Assembly: GCA_002361955.1 (NCBI GenBank)
Contig: DESK01000059.1
Location: 7,145 to 71,144 of the forward strand
Length of the DNA: 64,000 nucleotides
Direction of reading: 5' to 3'
Source: Lachnospiraceae bacterium UBA3316
GTDB lineage: Bacteria > Bacillota > Clostridia > Lachnospirales > Lachnospiraceae
In this document: positions 163 through 13,581 of the stretch, in pieces
Numbering within the stretch: the stretch's first letter is position 1
Layout: every line of letters starts with the position of its first letter
Notes under the pieces: model-generated
Told to the model about the DNA's origin: nothing
The model's database searches: none
What the model saw: only the letters and a program-made list of their open reading frames with translations
Program-made: the position numbers and the translations under genes

Positions 163-353
163 GCATGGCCTAGACGTATTACCGGCCCAGGGCGTTGTAT
201 TGCTGCTGTAAATGAAAGATACAGACAGTAAGCGATACAACTCTCTGGGCCAAACTGCGGCAGAAAAACAGTGGAAAACTTTTCGGACTGGTGCTATAAT
301 TACCATGGTTTTTAAAAATTGAATGAATTTTTATACATAGGAGAGACACAGAG

Positions 354-1691
354 ATGGAGAGAGATCTGACAACAGGAAGCGTATTCAAAAACATCGTATT
401 TTTTTCATTACCCTATCTGCTGTCTTACTTTTTACAGACACTCTACGGCATGGCCGACCTGTTTATCGTCGGCCAGTTCAACGGCGTTGACAGCATCACC
501 TCTGTTTCTGTGGGAAGCCAAATCATGCATATGATCACCGTCATGATCGTGGGGCTGGCCATGGGTTCCACCGTAACGATCGGCAGGGCAGTAGGAGGCA
601 GGCGGGCCGACCAGGCAGCCCGGACGGTCGGAAATACGATCTCCTTATTTATGGGCCTGTCCCTTGCCATCACAGTGCTTCTGCTGGCAGTGGTAAAACC
701 GATAACGGCAGCCATGTCCACCCCCAAGGAGGCTGTGTCCGAAACGATTCTCTACCTGACGATCTGTTTTATCGGCATTCCCTTTATCACCGCCTACAAT
801 ATTATCAGCTCCATTTTTCGGGGGCTGGGTGATTCCAAAAGCCCGATGTATTTTATTGCCATCGCCTGCGGCGTCAATATCGCCCTGGACTACCTCTTTA
901 TCGGTGTCTTCCGCATGGGAGCGGCAGGAGCGGCCCTCGGCACTACGATCTCCCAGACGGTCAGCGTGCTGGTGGCTCTGGCGGTGATCCTTGGGCGGAA
1001 AACGGGAATCCGGCCCAGGAGAACAGATTTTAAGCCCCATGCGGAAACTATGAGGCAGATTTTAAAAATCGGCATCCCCGTGGCCCTGCAGGATGGCTTT
1101 GTCCAGATCGCGTTCATTCTGATCACCATCATCGCGAACCGAAGGGGGCTGAATGACGCGGCGGCAGTGGGGATCGTAGAGAAAATTATAGGCATTGTCT
1201 TTCTTCTGCCCTCAACGACGCTCTCCACGGTTTCCGCCCTGTCTGCCCAGAATATCGGAGCAAAGAAGCACGGCCGGGCGACAGCTACCCTGCGCTACGG
1301 GATTTTGATCGTGGCCGTTTTGGGCTTTGCGGTATCTGTGGCCACACAATTTGTGGGGAGAAGCTTTGTGGGGCTGTTCACGGAGGATACTGCGGTCACG
1401 CTGCTGGGAGACCAGTATCTGCGGGCATACATTTGGGATTGTATGTTCGCCGGCGTACATTTTTGTTTCAGCGGATACTTTTGCGCTTACGGACTGTCGG
1501 GAATTTCTTTCCTGCACAATGCGCTGTCCATTGTATGTGTGCGCGTCCCCGGCGCGTTTCTGGCGTCAAAGTACTTTGCCGATACCCTTTATCCCATGGG
1601 GCTTGCCGCCCCCGGCGGTTCCCTGCTGTCCGTGATCGTGTGCGTGGCCGCCTTTCTCCTTTTGCGGAAGCAAAAGACGCTGCCGTCGTAA
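354..1691 (+). CDS. MATE family efflux transporter
   Basis: 445 aa, about 12 TM segments; MATE motifs MERDLTTGS, LYGMADLFIVGQ, RGLGDSKSP, QNIGAK. Confidence 0.95.
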   Translation: MERDLTTGSVFKNIVFFSLPYLLSYFLQTLYGMADLFIVGQFNGVDSITSVSVGSQIMHMITVMIVGLAMGSTVTIGRAVGGRRADQAARTVGNTISLFMGLSLAITVLLLAVVKPITAAMSTPKEAVSETILYLTICFIGIPFITAYNIISSIFRGLGDSKSPMYFIAIACGVNIALDYLFIGVFRMGAAGAALGTTISQTVSVLVALAVILGRKTGIRPRRTDFKPHAETMRQILKIGIPVALQDGFVQIAFILITIIANRRGLNDAAAVGIVEKIIGIVFLLPSTTLSTVSALSAQNIGAKKHGRATATLRYGILIVAVLGFAVSVATQFVGRSFVGLFTEDTAVTLLGDQYLRAYIWDCMFAGVHFCFSGYFCAYGLSGISFLHNALSIVCVRVPGAFLASKYFADTLYPMGLAAPGGSLLSVIVCVAAFLLLRKQKTLPS

Positions 1692-3468: not shown

Positions 3469-4761
3469 ATGTTTGCAGACAGAGCCAAGATCTTTATCCG
3501 TTCCGGAAAGGGCGGCGACGGCCATGTGAGCTTCCGCCGGGAGCTGTTCGTTCCTGCCGGAGGGCCTGACGGCGGCGACGGCGGCAAAGGCGGCGACATC
3601 ATTTTTGAAGTAGATAAGGGCATGACCACGTTAGCCGACTATCGGCACAGAGGAAAATTCTGCGCCCAGGATGGCGAGCAGGGAGGAAAGAAACGCTGCC
3701 ACGGTAAGAACGGCAGTGATCTGGTGCTGAAGGTTCCGGAGGGAACGATTATCAAGGAAGCAGAGTCCGAAAAAGTGATCGCGGATATGTCCGGTGAAAA
3801 CAGCCGGCAGGTGATCCTGAAAGGCGGCCGGGGCGGCCAGGGAAATATGCACTATGCCACCGCCACCATGCAGGCTCCCAAATATGCCCAGCCGGGCCAA
3901 AGCGCCCAGGAGCTGTGGGTGAAGCTGGAGCTTAAGGTGATCGCAGACGTAGGCCTTGTGGGATTTCCGAACGTTGGAAAATCCACGCTGCTTTCCCGTG
4001 TCACAAACGCAAGGCCCAAGATCGCCAACTATCATTTTACCACCTTAAACCCGAACCTGGGCGTGGTGGACCTGGAAGGCGGAAAGGGCTTCGTGATCGC
4101 CGACATTCCGGGGCTGATCGAGGGAGCCTCTGAGGGTGTTGGCTTAGGCCATGAATTTCTCCGCCACATTGAGAGAACACGCGTGATCATCCATATGGTA
4201 GACGCGGCCTCCACAGAGGGACGCGACCCCATTGACGATATTTACAAGATCAACGAGGAACTCCGGGCCTACAATCCGGAGATCGCCCAGCGGCCCCAGG
4301 TAATCGCTGCCAATAAGATCGACGCCATCTATGCCGGCGATGAGGATCCGGTACAGCGCATCCGAGAGGAATTTGAGCCCAAGGGCATAAAAGTATTTGC
4401 CATATCGGCTGTGAGCGGAAAGGGCCTGAAGGAGCTTTTATACTGTGTCCGTGAGATCTTAGATACCCTTCCCCAGGAGCCCGTAGTCTTCGAGCAGGAG
4501 TATTTCCCGGAAGAGGAGGCCTTCAGAAACGACCTGCCCTACACAGTGGAAAAATCTGCCGAGGAGGAAAACACCTATATTGTTGAGGGCCCGAAGATTG
4601 AAAAAATGCTGGGCTACACCAATCTGGATTCCGAGAAGGGCTTTGCCTTCTTCCAGAAATTCCTGAAGGAGACAGGAATCCTGGAGGAGCTGGAAAATGC
4701 CGGTATCCAGGAGGGAGACACCGTTCGGATGTACGGACTGGTCTTTGATTATTATAAATAG
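3469..4761 (+). CDS. obgE: GTPase ObgE
   Basis: Gly-rich Obg domain; GFPNVGKST, DIPGLIEG, NKID; C-terminal OCT domain. Confidence 0.99.
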   Translation: MFADRAKIFIRSGKGGDGHVSFRRELFVPAGGPDGGDGGKGGDIIFEVDKGMTTLADYRHRGKFCAQDGEQGGKKRCHGKNGSDLVLKVPEGTIIKEAESEKVIADMSGENSRQVILKGGRGGQGNMHYATATMQAPKYAQPGQSAQELWVKLELKVIADVGLVGFPNVGKSTLLSRVTNARPKIANYHFTTLNPNLGVVDLEGGKGFVIADIPGLIEGASEGVGLGHEFLRHIERTRVIIHMVDAASTEGRDPIDDIYKINEELRAYNPEIAQRPQVIAANKIDAIYAGDEDPVQRIREEFEPKGIKVFAISAVSGKGLKELLYCVREILDTLPQEPVVFEQEYFPEEEAFRNDLPYTVEKSAEEENTYIVEGPKIEKMLGYTNLDSEKGFAFFQKFLKETGILEELENAGIQEGDTVRMYGLVFDYYK

Positions 4762-4772
4762 AGGAAAAAAGA

Positions 4773-5063
4773 ATGACAAGTAAACAGAGAGCATACCTGA
4801 AAGGACTGGCTATGACCATGGATCCGATCTTCCAGATCGGAAAAGGCAGCCTGACACCGGAAAATACCCAGGCAATTGCCGAGGCTTTAGCTGCCAGGGA
4901 GCTGATCAAAATCAGCGTTCTGCAGAACTGCCTGGATGATCCCCGGATGCTGGCGGAGGTAATCGCGGAGCGCACCCGCTCCCAGGTCGTTCAGGTGATA
5001 GGGAAAAAAATTATCCTGTATAAAGAGGGTAAGGACAATAAGAAAAAAATTGTACTGCCGTAA
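4773..5063 (+). CDS. yhbY: YhbY/CRM RNA-binding ribosome assembly protein
   Basis: MTSKQRAYLKGLA...IFQIGK...RELIKISVL. Confidence 0.95.
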   Translation: MTSKQRAYLKGLAMTMDPIFQIGKGSLTPENTQAIAEALAARELIKISVLQNCLDDPRMLAEVIAERTRSQVVQVIGKKIILYKEGKDNKKKIVLP

Positions 5064-5076
5064 AGTAGAGGAAATT

Positions 5077-5712
5077 ATGTCAGAAGAGAAGCGCAGAAAA
5101 GTAGGAATTATGGGCGGCACCTTTGATCCGATCCATATAGGTCATTTAATTTTAGGCGAAAATGCCTATCAGCAGTTTGGGCTGGACTACGTACTGTTTA
5201 TGCCCTCCGGAAATCCTCCCCACAAGAGGGAACGCTCCGGGAGAGCCACCACCCAAGAACGAGTGGAGATGGTGGCCCTGGCTATTCAGGACAATCCTCA
5301 TTTTATTTTATCTCTGGCAGAAACCCATGAGGATGGGTACACCTACACAAAGGAGACTCTGACACGCCTGACGTCAGAGAACCCTGACACGGATTATTAT
5401 TTTATCATGGGCGCCGATTCCCTCTTTACCTTTGAGAGCTGGAAGGAGCCCCAGGGCATCTGCGATCTCTGTACGATCCTGGTGGCCGTGAGAAACGACG
5501 TCCCCACCCAGGCCATGGACAGGCAGATTGCCCATATTCGCGAAAAATATAACAGCCGGATTTTAACACTTGATACGCCAAACATTGAGATTTCGTCTGA
5601 GGCCCTTCGGGATCATATCCGGCAGCAGCGCTCCCTGCGCTATTATTTGCCATATCCGGTGGCAGACTATATCAGGGAACACAAGCTTTATACGCAGGAG
5701 GCGGACATATGA
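5077..5712 (+). CDS. nadD: Nicotinate-nucleotide adenylyltransferase
   Basis: GGTFDPIHIGH, PPHK, IMGADS, ISS motifs; ATG 5077 preferred (GAGG upstream). Confidence 0.97.
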   Translation: MSEEKRRKVGIMGGTFDPIHIGHLILGENAYQQFGLDYVLFMPSGNPPHKRERSGRATTQERVEMVALAIQDNPHFILSLAETHEDGYTYTKETLTRLTSENPDTDYYFIMGADSLFTFESWKEPQGICDLCTILVAVRNDVPTQAMDRQIAHIREKYNSRILTLDTPNIEISSEALRDHIRQQRSLRYYLPYPVADYIREHKLYTQEADI

Positions 5713-6299
5713 GCGAATATCATATGAAAAAGATGCAGCATAAGCTGAAAAAAAATCTGGACGAGAACCGCTACGAGCATACCATGGGTGTGCGCTACAC
5801 CTGTGCGGCACTGGCCATGCGCTATCAGTATGACCTGGAAAAGGCGCAGGTTGCAGGGCTTCTCCATGACTGTGCCAAATGTATACCCGATAAACAAAAA
5901 ATCAGGCTTTGCAGAAAAAATCATATTGAAATCACCCAGGCAGAGCTGGACAGCCCCTACCTGCTCCACGCGAAAGCGGGCGCATACATTGCCAGGGAAG
6001 ACTATGGGGTGGAAGATGAAGAGATCTTAAGCGCCATCGCCTGCCATACCACCGGGAAAGCGGAGATGACCCTGCTGGATAAGATTGTCTATATCGCAGA
6101 TTATATAGAGCCTCACAGGAATACGGCTCCCTGTCTGAACGAAATCCGTATGCTGGCCTTTGAAGACATTGATAAGGCCATGTATACCATACTAAAAAAC
6201 ACCTTGGATTACCTGGCGGAGAAGGGAAAGGCGATTGATCCCATGACCCAGGTATCCTTCGAATATTTCAGCAAACTTATGAAAGAAAAGGAGGGATAG
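5709..6299 (+). CDS. yqeK: Ap4A hydrolase, HD domain
   Basis: RYEHTMGV, LLHDCAK, HTTG, DKIVYIADYIEP; nadD-yqeK-rsfS synteny. Confidence 0.93.
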   Translation: MSEYHMKKMQHKLKKNLDENRYEHTMGVRYTCAALAMRYQYDLEKAQVAGLLHDCAKCIPDKQKIRLCRKNHIEITQAELDSPYLLHAKAGAYIAREDYGVEDEEILSAIACHTTGKAEMTLLDKIVYIADYIEPHRNTAPCLNEIRMLAFEDIDKAMYTILKNTLDYLAEKGKAIDPMTQVSFEYFSKLMKEKEG

Positions 6300-6300
6300 A

Positions 6301-6648
6301 ATGAACTCAAAAGAAATGGCAAAGCTGGTATGCAGCGCTCTGGAAGAAAAAAAGGCCGAGGACATTAAAGTCATCAACATCGCGGAAGTCTCCGTGCTGG
6401 CCGACTACTTTATCATTGCCAGCGGTACAAACAGGAACCAGGTGCAGGCCATGGCAGATAACGTGGAAGAAACCCTCGGCAGGGCCGGCGTCAATCCGAA
6501 ACAGATTGAGGGCTATCAGACAGCCAACTGGGTGCTGCTGGATTACGGCGATGTGGTGATCCATGTGTTCGATGAGGAAAACAGGCTGTTTTATGATCTG
6601 GAACGCATCTGGAGAGACGGAAAGAGCGTAGCAGTGGAAAGCCTCTGA
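6301..6648 (+). CDS. rsfS: Ribosome silencing factor
   Basis: EKKAEDI, DYFIIASG, WVLLDYGDVVIHVF, FYDLERIW. Confidence 0.97.
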   Translation: MNSKEMAKLVCSALEEKKAEDIKVINIAEVSVLADYFIIASGTNRNQVQAMADNVEETLGRAGVNPKQIEGYQTANWVLLDYGDVVIHVFDEENRLFYDLERIWRDGKSVAVESL

Positions 6649-6667
6649 TCAATCAAATATGCGAAAG

Positions 6668-6693
6668 AATACCCTGCTGATTGGCAGGGTATT
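6668..6693. terminator. Hairpin between convergent rsfS and lipid kinase genes
   Basis: AATACCCTGC-tgattg-GCAGGGTATT, 10-bp stem. Confidence 0.7.
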
Positions 6694-6708
6694 TCTATGT
6701 CCCCCTGT

Positions 6709-7635
6709 TCAGCAGGGCAGGGATGAGATAAACTTCAGCCTGTTCTCCAGGATCCCTACTGTCAGGTCGTTATGAAATCCAAAGGCCTCCCCGTCTGTAT
6801 GGACGGCCAGGGGATGCTTTGTCCTGATCCGGGCCTTGCGGCAGCGATAAATATGTACCTCTTTTGTACTGGTGTGCTTTCCCGGAAAAGCAGTGGGCAA
6901 AACACGCAAAATCTTTCTCACGGGCATCCGCTCTACCAGGCAGATATCCAGATAACCGTCATTGGGAAGAGCGTCCGGGCAGAATTTAAAGCCTCCCCCT
7001 TCATATTGCATATTCATAAAGGCGCTGAAAAATATCTGGGGAAAGGAAAATCTGCGTCCGTCATCCAAAATAAGCCCGGCCGAGGAGCTCTTTAAAAAGA
7101 GGATATGCTTCAGGGCGATTCCGAGATACGTCAGTTTTCCCAGGTGAAAACGGTTCAGGAAGTTTTTTATGCGGGAATTGAGAGCCTCATGGCAGACAGC
7201 AGCATCAAATCCTATGCCTGTACTTACCAGAAAGCGCCTCGTTTCTCCCTCAGAAGAAACGTACCCCACATCCGTGAGGCAGATCCTCTCCGGATGTAAG
7301 AGGAGATCAAGGGTCTTTTCCGGCTCTTTCGGCAGCCCCATAGCCCGCGCTAGGTCATTGCTTGATCCCGCCGGCAAATAGCCAAAGGTTGTGTTCGCAA
7401 AGTCCTGTATCCCATTGAGCACTTCATTTGCCGTACCGTCGCCGCCTACAGCCGCCAGTGTAAGCGCCTCACCCCGGGATGTGATCGCTTTCGCCAGGCA
7501 TACGGCGCTTCCCGGACCGTCTGTAAAAGAGACCTTGTAGGGAATCTGCTTTTTTCGCAGCAGGGATGCCATCACCTCCCATTTCTTTTTGCCCGCGCCG
7601 GAGCAGGCCTTTGGATTAACAATAAAATATATCAT
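6709..7635 (-). CDS. Diacylglycerol/lipid kinase family protein (YegS/DagK-like)
   Basis: FIVNPKACSG, GGDGTANEV, LPAGSSNDLAR, GIGFDA, HTDGE; start moved to ATG 7635 with GGAGGT RBS. Confidence 0.92.
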   Translation of the reverse strand: MIYFIVNPKACSGAGKKKWEVMASLLRKKQIPYKVSFTDGPGSAVCLAKAITSRGEALTLAAVGGDGTANEVLNGIQDFANTTFGYLPAGSSNDLARAMGLPKEPEKTLDLLLHPERICLTDVGYVSSEGETRRFLVSTGIGFDAAVCHEALNSRIKNFLNRFHLGKLTYLGIALKHILFLKSSSAGLILDDGRRFSFPQIFFSAFMNMQYEGGGFKFCPDALPNDGYLDICLVERMPVRKILRVLPTAFPGKHTSTKEVHIYRCRKARIRTKHPLAVHTDGEAFGFHNDLTVGILENRLKFISSLPC

Positions 7636-7845
7636 ACAGGATACCTCCCATAACTTATCCGTATTTATTACACAATTTTTACAGCAAATCCTATTGTAAT
7701 CTGCTGTCAGGTAGTGTATATTATTCACGAAACTCGTGGTTTTTCTGACCTCCTGGGGCTGTTTGCCCAAGGCCGCCACAGCGGCTGGCTCTTTGCCCGC
7801 AGGAATGAAATATGTCTCATCTATGTTAAACGGAGGAAACACATT

Positions 7846-8325
7846 TTGCTGACCAAATATCTGATCGTTTTTCTAATTTCTATGGTTCCACTGATCGAGC
7901 TGCGCGGCGCAATCCCTTATGCCACAGGATTTCATCTTCCTTTCATCCAATCCTATGTCATCGCAGTGATTGGAAATATGCTGCCGGTACCCTTTATTTT
8001 TCTGTTTGCCCGCAAGGTTTTAGAGTGGGGCGCCGACAAGAAACTCACCGGAAAGTTCTTTCGCTTTTGCCTGGAAAAAGGCCATAAGGGCGGAGAGAAG
8101 CTGAAAGCAAAAGCAGGACGCGGGCTTCCGCTGGCTTTGCTCTTATTTGTGGGCATTCCCCTTCCCGGAACAGGGGCCTGGACGGGAACTCTCGCCGCAA
8201 GCCTTCTCGATATGGACTTTAAAACAAGCGTCATAGCCGTAATGTGCGGCGTCCTGCTGGCAGGAGTAATCATGGCAGCGGCCAGCGCCGGACTGTTCGG
8301 AGCCATAGGGGCTGTTTTTTCCTGA
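7846..8325 (+). CDS. COG2426 'small multi-drug export' family membrane protein
   Basis: ISMVPLIELRGAIP and FVGIPLPGTGAWTGTLAA; TTG start after GGAGG. Confidence 0.88.
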   Translation: MLTKYLIVFLISMVPLIELRGAIPYATGFHLPFIQSYVIAVIGNMLPVPFIFLFARKVLEWGADKKLTGKFFRFCLEKGHKGGEKLKAKAGRGLPLALLLFVGIPLPGTGAWTGTLAASLLDMDFKTSVIAVMCGVLLAGVIMAAASAGLFGAIGAVFS

Positions 8326-8362
8326 TAGGAAAGCCGTCCCTGCGGCAGCTGCCTGTACAAAG

Positions 8363-8425
8363 AAAAACCTGCATACACGGACAGATCAGAAACATCTGAA
8401 GCTCTGCCGGCGTATGCAGGTTTTT
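8363..8425. terminator. Long bidirectional hairpin/terminator between COG2426 gene and lexA
   Basis: AAAAACCTGCATAC ... GTATGCAGGTTTTT perfect 14-bp outer stem with further inner pairing. Confidence 0.75.
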
Positions 8426-8462
8426 GTTATAGGTTCAGCCATAGGGCGAACGGTTCTCATTT

Positions 8463-9080
8463 TTAAAGGAAACGAAAGACTCCGATCACCTTTCCCAGAA
8501 CTTCCATGTGGTCGACGATGATGGGCTCCATCGTGTCATTTTCCGGCTGAAGGCGGTAATGGCCGTTCTCCTTGTAATACGTCTTTACCGTGGCGGAATC
8601 ATCATCCACCAGAGCGACCACCATATCGCCGTTCTCCGCGGTTTTCTGGGACTTTACAAGGATCCTGTCATTGTCGAAAATACCGGCGTTGATCATGCTG
8701 TCCCCCTTCACCGTCAGCATAAAGGTCTCTGCGTTCGGCATAAATTCCGCCGGGACAGGAAAGTAGCTCTCGATATTCTGCTCCGCCAAAATCGGCATCC
8801 CTGCGGCCACACGCCCGATCACCGGCACGCTCACCATCTCGCGCCTGAGCATATTAAAATTGTCGTCCAGAATCTCAATGGCCCTGGGCTTTGACGGATC
8901 CCTGCGGATATATCCGTTTTTCTCTAACGTCTCCAGGTGGGCATGGACAGAGGAGGTGGACTTTAAATGTACCGCTTCACAGATATCCCGTACTGAGGGC
9001 GGAAATCCCCTGCTCACAATCTCGCTTTTAATATATTCTAAAATTTCTTCCTGCTTTTTTGAAATCTTTCCATTTATCAT
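8463..9080 (-). CDS. lexA: SOS repressor LexA
   Basis: wHTH (GFPPSVRDIC), VAAG cleavage site, GDSM serine, ATVK lysine. Confidence 0.99.
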   Translation of the reverse strand: MINGKISKKQEEILEYIKSEIVSRGFPPSVRDICEAVHLKSTSSVHAHLETLEKNGYIRRDPSKPRAIEILDDNFNMLRREMVSVPVIGRVAAGMPILAEQNIESYFPVPAEFMPNAETFMLTVKGDSMINAGIFDNDRILVKSQKTAENGDMVVALVDDDSATVKTYYKENGHYRLQPENDTMEPIIVDHMEVLGKVIGVFRFL

Positions 9081-10047: not shown

Positions 10048-11112
10048 TTAAAAAAGCTCGCACGGATTTATGGCTTCCCGGTTTTGGAACGTGCCGCCTG
10101 CTTCCTCTTCATTTTCTGCCGGATACATTTTCCAAAGATTTTTTATCTGTGGCAGCAGTGTCTCAAGCTCCCACAGGCGGCCGCTGTTTGCATAGCTGTA
10201 GGGATCGTTTACTTTTATTTCCCCGTCTTCGCAGCCTGCAAGCACGATGAAATGGCCGCCGTCGGTAAAGTCGCCGGGGCGGACGCTGCATATGATGGGA
10301 AATCCCTGCTTTAAGGTATCCATGACGATCTCCCGATCCAGGGAAATCGCCTGTCCCAGCACTCCAAACTCTCTGCCTCCCTCGGCAATAAAACTCCACA
10401 TCGTGTTCCCTTCTCCGTCCAGATAGCCATTTTTATAGCTCTTAACAGCCATGACATAAGGCGTTACCTGGGTATTTCCCGTAAGCCCGGCGATGACCAT
10501 GGCCAGGCAGGCAGGGCCGCAGCCATTCGTTGCCACAAGACCGTCACCGTAGCTGCCATACCCCCAGCGCTGGTCCCACTGGATCAAAAGAGGGATTCCC
10601 TGGCCGGCCATATCCTCCCTTGTCAGGGCATAGCCGTAAACCTGCCCCTGCTTTTGGGGATACTCATATACAAAATCCAGCGTCTCCCTGTTTTTGTCAA
10701 GCATACCCAGAATTTTCTCCGGATACCGGAGCCTGTTTCTCTGAATCTCTTCCAGTTTCTCCTGATCCGTTAAGGGATCCTCCGCGGATCCTTCCTCTGT
10801 ATCCCGTTGGGGCAGAAGAGAAGACGCCGTCTCCATTTCTGATTCCACAGATTCCCCTGTCTCCGGATCCGCTTCCTTCCGGCCTTCTGCAGCTTCCGCA
10901 GGAGACGTATCCGCCCTGTCAGATCCTCGCGTATCCGTTGCCATTTCCGTGCATTCCCGGCCTTCCTGCCGACGTTCCAATAGAGATCGCACCTCACCCA
11001 CACAGATAAAGATCACCAGCAGCATTCCTGACAGCAGGAGAGTGCCCTGCAGAATACAGCGGACCCTGTGCCGCCTCTTTCTCTTTTTGCTTTCCTTTTT
11101 ATGACTCCCCAT
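10048..11112 (-). CDS. Membrane-anchored C39-like cysteine peptidase
   Basis: N-terminal TM, acidic linker, QWDQRW, GCGPACLAM (Cys), GHFIVL (His), VNDPYS. Confidence 0.85.
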   Translation of the reverse strand: MGSHKKESKKRKRRHRVRCILQGTLLLSGMLLVIFICVGEVRSLLERRQEGRECTEMATDTRGSDRADTSPAEAAEGRKEADPETGESVESEMETASSLLPQRDTEEGSAEDPLTDQEKLEEIQRNRLRYPEKILGMLDKNRETLDFVYEYPQKQGQVYGYALTREDMAGQGIPLLIQWDQRWGYGSYGDGLVATNGCGPACLAMVIAGLTGNTQVTPYVMAVKSYKNGYLDGEGNTMWSFIAEGGREFGVLGQAISLDREIVMDTLKQGFPIICSVRPGDFTDGGHFIVLAGCEDGEIKVNDPYSYANSGRLWELETLLPQIKNLWKMYPAENEEEAGGTFQNREAINPCELF

Positions 11113-12259
11113 GCGCGTTCTCCGTATCCCCGTTCCCCGGTTTTTTCAGCGAGACAACGTCAGCAGCCCGGCGCCTGTTTTCGTCGCTCATTCTGGCATA
11201 ATGCTTCTTTGTCGTATTGACATCTTTATGGCCCAGCACGTCAGCCACCAGGTAAATATCCCCCGTTTCCCGGTAGAGGGCCGTTCCATAAGTACTGCGC
11301 AGCTTGTGGGGCGTGATCTTCTTATTTGTTTCAATCATCGAACAGTATTTTTTCACCATCACCTCGATGCTCCTGACCGCCATGCGGTTTCCCCGGAGGG
11401 AGAGAAAAAGGGCCTTTTCTTCTTTGTCCTCCTTTAAAAGCCGCTGTCTGGGCGAAAGCTTTTTGATCTCCCCGTCCTTAGCATTTTTCTCCGGCTGTTC
11501 GCCCGCTGTTTCCTCCTCATCGTATTCCTCGATTCCCAGATAGTAATTCAGTGCGTCCCGCACATCTTCCCCGAAATAAATGTAAGATTCATTTCCACCT
11601 TTACGGATCACCCGAAAGGTCTGGTTATGAAAATCCACATCCGTCAGATTTAATCCCGCCAGCTCAGACACACGCATCCCCGTTCCCAGAAACGTCGTCA
11701 AAATAGCTCTGTCCCTGGCCGCCGTAAGATCATGGAATTTTCTCTGGCGTTCCGTCATACGGGGAGGGGCCTCCACAGCCTCCAGAAGATCGAACACCTG
11801 ATCCTGATCCAGGGTAATGATCGCCTTTTCATGGAGCTTGGGGCGTTCCACAGCATTCAGGGGGTTATTATGGACAATCTGACGGCGGTTAAAGAAGCTG
11901 TACAGATTGCTGAGAGCAGAGAGCTTCCTGGCCTTGGCCGCCTCGCCGTTGCGGTATTCAATCCCTTCATAAACGTAGTAGTTTAAATGCTCTAAGTATT
12001 CATCAATATCGGCAGACGTCATTTCTTCTAAAGCCTGTAAAGGAATTTCCCGGATCTCTTTATCCCTGTAGATGGGATTTTCCATCACAATAAACTGTAA
12101 AAAGGTATAGATATCCCTGCAATATCCGGCCTGGGTTCTGGGAGATGTGGAAGAGGCGATTCCTCGAAAATAATCCGTACAGAAGGGCGGCATTTTTTTC
12201 AGCATAGAGCGCAAAAGCAAAACATTCTGTTTTCGGACGGTTTCTGCATATTCGTTCAT
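11099..12259 (-). CDS. Tyrosine recombinase, Xer family (XerS-like)
   Basis: Full catalytic set: GMRVSEL (R), RKGG (K), PHKLR (HxxR), LGH, KHY (Y); SAM-like N-terminal domain; housekeeping context. Confidence 0.93.
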   Translation of the reverse strand: MNEYAETVRKQNVLLLRSMLKKMPPFCTDYFRGIASSTSPRTQAGYCRDIYTFLQFIVMENPIYRDKEIREIPLQALEEMTSADIDEYLEHLNYYVYEGIEYRNGEAAKARKLSALSNLYSFFNRRQIVHNNPLNAVERPKLHEKAIITLDQDQVFDLLEAVEAPPRMTERQRKFHDLTAARDRAILTTFLGTGMRVSELAGLNLTDVDFHNQTFRVIRKGGNESYIYFGEDVRDALNYYLGIEEYDEEETAGEQPEKNAKDGEIKKLSPRQRLLKEDKEEKALFLSLRGNRMAVRSIEVMVKKYCSMIETNKKITPHKLRSTYGTALYRETGDIYLVADVLGHKDVNTTKKHYARMSDENRRRAADVVSLKKPGNGDTENAHGES

Positions 12260-12287: not shown

Positions 12288-12323
12288 TATTATTGCGTAA
12301 AACATGGATTTCACGCAATAATA
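12288..12323. repeat. Perfect 11-bp inverted repeat just upstream of the recombinase
   Basis: TATTATTGCGT-14 bp-ACGCAATAATA. Confidence 0.85.
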
Positions 12324-12452: not shown

Positions 12453-12896
12453 TTATTGCAAGTCTTCTTCCTCACAATCCGGCAAGAAAGATTCTTTTCC
12501 AAAACTTTCCGGGAGAAGCTCAGCCAGGGAATACACTTTATATTCCAGGCGTTCATTTCCCAGGATAATTTGAAACCTTTCCGGATCACAAAATTCAGCC
12601 ATCACCTGGCGGCAGACACCGCAGGGGGCGCAAAAATCCGCCGCGCCTGCCTGCCTGGTTCCGCCGACTATGGCTATGGCTGTAAATTCCCTTTCCCCCT
12701 CGCTGACCGCCTTAAAAAATGCCGTCCGCTCTGCACAATTTGTAGGGGAATAAGACGCGTTTTCAATATTGCAGCCGGTATATGCCTTCCCTGACCGGCT
12801 AAGGAGGGCTGCCCCCACCTGAAAGCCGGAATACGGCGAATACGAATTTTTTCTGGCCTCCAGCGCCAGCTCGACCAATGCCGTCTCTGTCATCAC
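12453..12896 (-). CDS. cdd: Cytidine deaminase
   Basis: SPYSGFQVGAAL, GCNIENASY, CAER, PCGVCRQ. Confidence 0.98.
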   Translation of the reverse strand: MMTETALVELALEARKNSYSPYSGFQVGAALLSRSGKAYTGCNIENASYSPTNCAERTAFFKAVSEGEREFTAIAIVGGTRQAGAADFCAPCGVCRQVMAEFCDPERFQIILGNERLEYKVYSLAELLPESFGKESFLPDCEEEDLQ

Positions 12897-12987: not shown

Positions 12988-13000
12988 AGAGTTTCCGTAA

Positions 13001-13033
13001 ATAAGTTTCCATAATTATATTATGTAAACTTAT
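13001..13033. other. dif-like chromosome dimer resolution site (candidate)
   Basis: ATAAGTTTCCATAA-TTATA-TTATGTAAACTTAT; 13016-13030 identical to the last 15 nt of B. subtilis dif; near a Xer gene and the strand-orientation flip. Confidence 0.7.
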
Positions 13034-13134: not shown

Positions 13135-13581
13135 CTACATCTGATCCGTATCGAGAATCACCGTAAAGGGACCGTCATTGCACAGCTCTACCTGCATCTC
13201 GGCCCCAAAGCTTCCCGTTTCCACCGTGGCCACCTTTTTCCGGCACTCTGCGATGATATACTCATACAGCTCCTGGGCGAGACGGGGCTCTGCCGCATCC
13301 GTAAAGCTGGGACGGTTCCCCTTTTTACAATTGGCATATAAGGTGAACTGAGACACAAGGAGAAGCTCTCCTCCCACGTCTGCCAGGGACAGATTCGTTT
13401 TTCCCTCCTGATCCTCAAAAATCCGGAGCCCCGTCATCTTTTTTACCAGGCGGTCAGCCTCCGCTTTCGTATCCTTCTGTCCCACGCCGATCAGTACCAA
13501 AAATCCCTTGTCAATCCTGCCTATCACCTGTCCGTCCACTGAGACGCCGGCATGGGAAACCCGCTGAATCAAAAACCTCAT
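13135..13581 (-). CDS. dtd: D-aminoacyl-tRNA deacylase
   Basis: [26 protein letters not shown]. Confidence 0.98.

Follow-up and report, generated by a model that had tools for sequence, protein, structure and literature searches.

A dif-like palindrome of XerD-type arms beside the candidate dif of a lone Xer recombinase at a Lachnospiraceae chromosome terminus

Introduction

Canonical dif, as acted on in Escherichia coli and by CodV/RipX of Bacillus subtilis, is a unique site in the terminus region that joins an XerC arm, a centre of six bases and an XerD arm. The supplement of PMC3025954 gives the Bacillus-type sequence, ACTTCCTAGAATATATATTATGTAAACT, for B. amyloliquefaciens, and a review (PMC5357621) gives centres of 6–8 bases for other dif regions and of 11 bases for difSL. 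The latter is the site of XerS, the lone recombinase of about 360–390 amino acids of streptococci and lactococci, which is described as carrying its site directly upstream of the gene, with a conserved asymmetry of the arms (PMC2965235, PMC5357621); by the account in PMC2965235, streptococcal dimer resolution is done by XerS. Further single-recombinase systems are XerL/dif of Legionellales (PMC9765430), in which the dif of Legionella has perfectly symmetric arms, and XerH/difH of Epsilonproteobacteria. A different role for dif-like sequences has been described for the XDS of B. subtilis, which lie at the terminus and at which bound XerD unloads Smc-ScpAB (Karaboja et al. 2021, as cited in PMC11840125 and PMC10945525).

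Lachnospirales are among the most abundant gut bacteria, and their dimer-resolution system is not described in the literature searched; specifically, our search found no paper describing a dif or Xer system of Lachnospiraceae. Moreover, the sites of the main published dif prediction are missed or misplaced in clostridia. Here, we analyse a window, i.e., the whole stretch of 64,000 nucleotides under study, from Lachnospiraceae bacterium UBA3316. It contains two inverted repeats, separated by 680 bases, in the vicinity of a tyrosine recombinase gene: a palindrome of XerD-type arms (site A) and a repeat just upstream of the gene (site B).

Results

Site A (13001–13033, unstranded), read directly from the window as ATAAGTTTCCATAATTATATTATGTAAACTTAT, comprises a left arm (13001–13014, ATAAGTTTCCATAA), the centre TTATA (13015–13019) and a right arm (13020–13033, TTATGTAAACTTAT). 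Of the 14 positions of each arm, 13 pair across the five-base centre, and 11-base XerD-type arms lie within them at 13004–13014 and 13020–13030. The second of these, TTATGTAAACT, is of the XerD-binding TTATGTnAAnT type and is identical to the right arm of dif in Bacillus and Staphylococcus, and together with four bases of the centre it forms TATATTATGTAAACT (13016–13030), the last 15 bases of Bacillus-type dif. Thus, the palindrome and the 15-base identity reported in the earlier note both hold, the former on direct reading and the latter against the sequence in the supplement of PMC3025954. Site A therefore resembles canonical dif in its right arm and part of its centre; it differs from it in that the centre has five bases and not six, and in that the XerD arm, with one change, is repeated on the left in place of a distinct XerC arm. 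A third XerD-arm-like half-site lies immediately outside (12990–13000, minus strand, TTACGGAAACT), with two mismatches to TTATGTAAACT and identity to the left arm at 10 of 11 positions. Read as AGTTTCCGTAA, this half-site is a direct repeat of the left arm placed 14 bases farther out.

Site A occurs once in the 2.65-Mb assembly of 67 contigs. No second match was found at up to four mismatches, and at six mismatches the sole extra match was the reverse strand of the site itself. Scored with a weight matrix built from 28 related sites in a leave-one-out manner, i.e., with site A excluded from training, it reached 47.5 bits among 5.3 million genome positions, compared with 20.9 bits for the runner-up. 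The GC skew changes sign from positive to negative, as expected of a terminus, at 6000–9000 of the window (unstranded), about 5 kb from site A. The earlier note is supported to this extent: site A is of the dif type, its arm sequence is that of canonical XerD arms, and it lies at the terminus. The neighbouring genes are all on the minus strand and include lexA (8463–9080), a gene for a C39-like peptidase (10048–11112), cdd (12453–12896) and dtd (13135–13581). Along the window, the order is recombinase, cdd, site A and dtd. As a single strand, site A folds at −7.3 kcal/mol (z = −4.65); neither site A nor site B carries the signature of an Rfam family, a promoter or an intrinsic terminator.

The recombinase gene (11099–12259, minus strand) encodes a lone Xer-type tyrosine recombinase of 386 amino acids (PF00589, 111 bits) in which the catalytic R, HxxR, H and Y are present. 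It lies 740 bases from site A with cdd alone intervening, so that the intact neighbouring recombinase of the earlier note is found where it was placed. The layout of the protein is XerS-like and its best NCBIfam model is XerS (NF003462); at 180 bits against a cut-off of 267, it is not an XerS equivalog. Its identity to true XerS is 25%, and to the XerD of its own genome 26%. Because of the sub-cut-off score and these identities, we treat the protein as a family of its own. Databases label this family merely as "tyrosine-type recombinase/integrase", and its best named relative, from Schaedlerella arabinosiphila, is 76% identical. Of 41 relatives, 38 have the gene, as do 183 of the 201 genomes in an order-wide sample, probably Lachnospirales, in which the family names of the genomes are inferred. 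Residues ~243–285 (window 11400–11530) form an acidic, lysine-rich insertion of about 40 residues, EEYDEEETAGEQPEKNAKDGEIKKLSPRQRLLKEDKEE, which sits between the halves of the catalytic domain and has no counterpart in XerD.

A profile search with PF00589 marked six places in the genome: XerD on contig C45, the 386-aa protein, a 278-aa recombinase, a phage-type integrase and two fragments at contig ends. XerD is an equivalog (TIGR02225, 349 bits; cut-off 329.6) with the full set of catalytic residues, and an array of XerD half-sites upstream of xerD is absent on contig C45. No protein of the genome reaches the XerC cut-off, in which it differs from the canonical XerC/XerD system. A canonical XerC/XerD pair elsewhere in the genome had been named in the earlier note as an argument against a one-enzyme system; its XerD half is found, on contig C45, and its XerC half is not. 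The genome also encodes Smc.

Site B (12288–12323, minus strand) has the sequence TATTATTGCGTAAAA-CATGGA-TTTCACGCAATAATA and is a 15-6-15 repeat in which 14 of 15 positions match. The site occurs once in the genome and lies upstream of the recombinase gene, its end being 28 bases from the ATG at 12259; on the gene strand, its centre reads TCCATG. Near orthologous genes, sites of this type follow the consensus ACTATTCG-nn-AAA-N6-TTT-nn-CGAATAGT, a 13-6-13 palindrome, with a conserved asymmetry at two inner positions and a loose centre consensus of CACAGG or CACAAC. Across 19 genomes, the dyad covaries: 9 of 14 pairs have changed on both sides, a value as high as this being found in none of 500 shuffles. 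A covariance model of site B (R1) gave one strong match per genome in 33 of the 38 relatives that have the gene, many of which had not contributed to its training. None of the three gene-less relatives was matched by R1, one of these genomes being 99% complete, and only one of nine further gene-negative genomes of the order had a strong match. Site B was not found in G199, G012 and G024, despite the presence of the gene.

Complete genomes allow the position of site B to be compared with the point opposite dnaA, which is used here as a stand-in for the true terminus. The site was found in nine of ten such genomes, and in seven of these nine it lies within ~100 kb of the dnaA antipode, at distances of 4 kb (G157), 7 kb (G074), about 16 kb (G084), 27 kb (G218), 43 kb (G206) and about 100 kb (G164 and G090). 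The chance that at least seven sites lie within 3% of the genome length of the antipode is about 1e-7. In G218, site B is at the terminus and the recombinase gene is 1.13 Mb off; in another case the distance between site and gene is 483 kb. Because site B stays at the terminus even with the gene 1.13 Mb away, it behaves as a dif and not as a promoter operator. Site B is the candidate cognate dif of the adjacent lone 386-aa recombinase. At locus L067 (G009:C2:95000-114900), two paralogous copies of the lone recombinase gene lie 3.8 kb apart; this locus further contains a pair of XerD-arm palindromes, with 560 bases between them, and two B-like sites, at 4617 and at 8099.

The distribution of A-type sites is a different one. 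Canonical XerD is patchy, being present in 19 of 41 relatives and 85 of 201 genomes of the order; some families have it almost throughout, and in others none of the sampled genomes gave a match. With a sequence model of the palindrome (R2; matches accepted at E up to 2e-3), 11 of the 19 relatives that have intact XerD were found to hold A-type sites, compared with 2 of the 22 others (Fisher p = 0.002, kinship ignored); because relatives are not independent, Fisher tests overstate this association. The remaining 8 of the 19 XerD-positive relatives lack a confident R2 match. The two exceptions without intact XerD, G023 and G026, both have truncated XerD derivatives, and there is no R2-positive genome among the other 20. 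The derivative of G023 has 248 amino acids (L273, G023:C5:122700-124100, 338–1084, plus strand) and that of G026 has 273 (L274, G026:C38:54500-56000, 356–1177, plus strand). XerD is the best family of both (161–171 bits); they have Lys in place of Arg-I and are without the HxxR, His and catalytic Tyr motifs, so that we read both as catalytically dead. G023 has two A-type sites and G026 three to four. G014 has XerD and two A-type sites, and neither the XerS-like gene nor site B was found there. In the order-wide sample, the exact pattern CATAA-N5-TTATGNAAAC was present, after removal of coding false positives, in 21 of 85 XerD-positive and 6 of 116 XerD-negative genomes. Kinship inflates the statistics here as well; the direction of the association is consistent at three sampling levels. 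Two to four A-type copies occur in G009, G014, G017, G023, G026 and G030. In complete genomes, A-type sites are 27–34 kb (G218) and about 51 kb (G206) from the dnaA antipode.

Several patterns and readings were rejected. The pattern GTTTNCATAA-N5-TTATGNAAAC with three mismatches was of no use for searching, since its reversed control occurred just as often. In the order-wide sample, the raw N5 count was raised by a conserved GGTAACCATAA-N5-TTATGGAAAC within an ABC-transporter reading frame (family f21), and these matches were removed; the look-alike is seen at ~7950–7969 of L269 (G218:C1:1586800-1595400) and at orthologous places in genera g56 and g107. In genus g107, a mobile element between paired A-type matches was considered and rejected: the intervening 6.9 kb consists of housekeeping genes, leuS among them, and the outer match of the pair lies within coding sequence. 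Similarly, the xerD genes of family f2 are not pseudogenes, as their in-frame stops are the natural end of a shorter protein just past the catalytic Tyr. These proteins (L263-L268, in G193, G165, G129, G025, G200 and G144) end 4–6 residues after the catalytic Tyr, e.g., ...STTQVYTHLAK*, and are without the last 11–13 residues of the usual C-terminal tail.

The five-base spacer, counted with the arms aligned to known dif arms (xxxxxCATAA and TTATGxxxxxx), is typical of A-type sites. It recurs in all related sites detected within the order, with spacers as varied as TTATA, TTGAA, CACTA, AAAAA, TATAC, TAATA, AATTG and others; because N5 is conserved across relatives, the spacer of site A is not an assembly error. 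The centre that the earlier note had described as unusual is thus real, and it is shorter than the reviewed dif centres. Versions of the exact pattern with N6 or N7 were no more frequent than the reversed control in the 201 genomes of the order. A scan for perfect XerD-arm palindromes across all prokaryotes, with one genome per species and the first 120 loci tallied, gave, among the matches listed, 82 with N5, 41 with N6, one with N7 and none with N4. Among these, N5 palindromes are chiefly from Lachnospiraceae, other Clostridia and Tissierellia, with some from Bacillaceae, and N6 palindromes are from Paenibacillus, Streptococcus, Gemella and Staphylococcaceae.

In the genus of this genome, each arm of the palindrome is 16 bases long, and its outermost five positions vary between species with complementarity kept. 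In the wide scan, 7–8 further complementary bases flank about one quarter of the perfect XerD-arm palindromes among the matches listed. Protein contacts are not an explanation for symmetric variation of outer positions that are not conserved in sequence. The symmetry may instead have been caused by template-switch mutation at quasi-palindromes or by selection for cruciform or hairpin formation. Arms of 16–18 bases, with outer positions that are species-variable and perfectly complementary, are seen at the sites of G003, G004, G006 and G023 and at loci L153, L160, L165, L194, L196, L199, L222, L238, L255, L258 and L261.

Discussion

Altogether, the reading that we favour, with some reserve, is that site A is probably an XDS-like docking site for XerD that lies beside site B, the probable dif of the lone recombinase. 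In this model, the 386-aa enzyme would resolve chromosome dimers alone at site B, as XerS does at difSL, and canonical XerD, the product of the gene on contig C45, would bind as a dimer to the two inverted XerD-type arms of site A. Site A would then serve as a docking place at the terminus where XerD acts without recombining, e.g., in the unloading of Smc-ScpAB. Because the dead XerD derivatives of G023 and G026 keep A-type sites, the function associated with these sites may not need catalysis; a spacer below the reviewed 6–8 bases, taken with the retention of sites beside these derivatives, fits a role of site A in binding only. Site A could be a symmetrised relic of an ancestral XerC/XerD dif that was retained, after the loss of XerC, beside a new dif.

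The comparison with XDS is close in several respects. Both are dif-like sequences with an XerD arm in the terminus region, and both are tied to XerD without an XerC partner, a tie that for site A is suggested by co-occurrence. B. subtilis has several XDS sites, and A-type sites likewise occur in multiple copies in several relatives. Site A differs in being present in one copy in this genome, where the next best position scores 20.9 bits, and in lying right beside a different dif. Its form, a (near-)perfect XerD–XerD palindrome with a five-base spacer, is set here against XDS as these are known from citing descriptions. With canonical dif, site A shares uniqueness, its terminus location and the presence of an XerD equivalog in the genome.

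Site B and its gene are in turn closest to XerS/difSL. The likeness extends to the lone recombinase of similar length, the site directly upstream of the gene and the conserved asymmetry of the arms, and the left arm of the B site of G017, ATTATTCGGAAAA, resembles the left arm of difSL, ATCTTTCCGAAAA. The proteins differ, in that true XerS scores 550 bits with the model for which the 386-aa protein stays below the cut-off, with 25% identity between them, and so do the sites, as site B has a six-base centre and symmetric arms of 13 bases, compared with the 11-base centre given for difSL. Site A is unrelated to difSL. It does not directly adjoin the recombinase gene or follow its distribution, and site B does both. 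XerL/dif and XerH/difH are, like site B, single-recombinase systems, with arm sequences and recombinase families unrelated to those described here. The three-part layout of the window recurs in Streptococcus varani (locus L173, NZ_CTEN01000002.1), where a perfect 15-6-15 palindrome, AATAAGTTTACATAA-TATTTA-TTATGTAAACTTATT (3925–3960), is followed ~600 bases on by difSL (4549–4579) and immediately thereafter by true xerS (4633–5703; 550 bits). Thus, a palindrome of XerD arms accompanies difSL and xerS there as site A accompanies site B and the recombinase gene here, with the same arms (AATAAGTTTACATAA) and a spacer of six bases compared with five. Short XerD has its own NCBIfam model, of 245 positions (NF002685), which we take to cover the short, non-catalytic XerD of streptococci.

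Since the XerD of this genome is catalytically intact, recombination by XerD at site A has to be weighed. A homotetramer of XerD could use site A, with a five-base or a shifted seven-base crossover, as a second unlinking system in parallel to site B. All catalytic residues of XerD are present, site A is dif-like in being unique and at the terminus, its odd-length centre is always asymmetric and thus gives the site a direction, and in G014, which has A-type sites, XerD is the sole Xer-type protein. We nevertheless consider this rather doubtful: among the dif centres given in the review (PMC5357621), with 6–8 bases elsewhere and 11 in difSL, none is as short as five; A-type sites are retained alongside catalytically dead XerD derivatives; several genomes have two to four of them near the terminus, unlike dif; and in the order, 116 of the 201 genomes searched gave no XerD, while the other system is kept. 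If true, two independent single-recombinase unlinking systems would lie side by side at the Lachnospiraceae terminus. Improbable, in our judgement, is a heterotetramer in which the 386-aa protein replaces XerC as the partner of XerD, with site A as its dif and site B as merely an operator or accessory site of the recombinase gene. It would account for a genome with both proteins and without a detected XerC and for sites A and B being nearly always a few kb apart, and the left arm of A-type sites in other families (e.g., ATTTACCATAA) agrees at 8 of 11 positions with ACTTCCTATAA, the XerC arm of Bacillus. However, in the genus of this genome the same XerD arm stands on both sides, so that nothing would position two different proteins; the arms of site B (ATTCGnnAAA) are unrelated to those of site A; and site B and the recombinase are kept in genomes without XerD. 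An operator, moreover, would hardly be expected at the terminus with the gene 1.1 Mb or 483 kb away.

The proposal of the earlier note, that the neighbouring XerS-like recombinase acts as the single enzyme on site A, is likewise improbable, as this recombinase has a far better candidate site, site B, and site A follows XerD. The proposal had included the expectation that the palindrome recurs near orthologous xer genes, which is borne out in several relatives, where gene and site are 0–6 kb apart, and fails in roughly every second genome with the recombinase, where no A-type site was detected. Proximity of this kind is explained by sites A and B both being at the terminus, as in G218. Conversely, A-type sites are present in G014, where gene and site B were not found, and in G131, which has no gene at the search threshold and yet has a strong B match. 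Least probable of all is that site A is mainly a hairpin or cruciform, or that it lies between dtd and cdd as an operator for some unrelated transcription factor. The species-variable outer flanks that stay complementary and the stable single-strand fold would agree with this, but the inner 11 bases are the XerD arm and are conserved across families and in other classes of Firmicutes, the genes flanking A-type sites differ from genome to genome, and a terminator signature and an Rfam match are both absent. On established knowledge, moreover, template-switch mutation at quasi-palindromes could yield the outer symmetry without any function.

Our results point to a lone, as yet unnamed Xer recombinase and its conserved 13-6-13 site as the dif system of the order. 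XerD appears to be retained patchily and, in some lineages, as a catalytically dead protein tied to a symmetric former dif with a five-base spacer, which would provide a natural series in which a recombinase has seemingly been converted into a pure DNA-docking protein. The pair of sites A and B offers a testable system for asking how dimer resolution and the unloading of SMC are arranged at a Gram-positive terminus. For annotation, palindromes of the A kind should not be called dif.

Finally, we note a site with the canonical spacing in genus g37. Two of its species, which have a divergent XerD (~273 bits) and are without the lone recombinase, have in common an N6 site, CATAAATGAACTTATGAAAAC (G077:C16:140673-140693 and G146:C9:117847-117867), and this may be a dif of canonical spacing in that genus.
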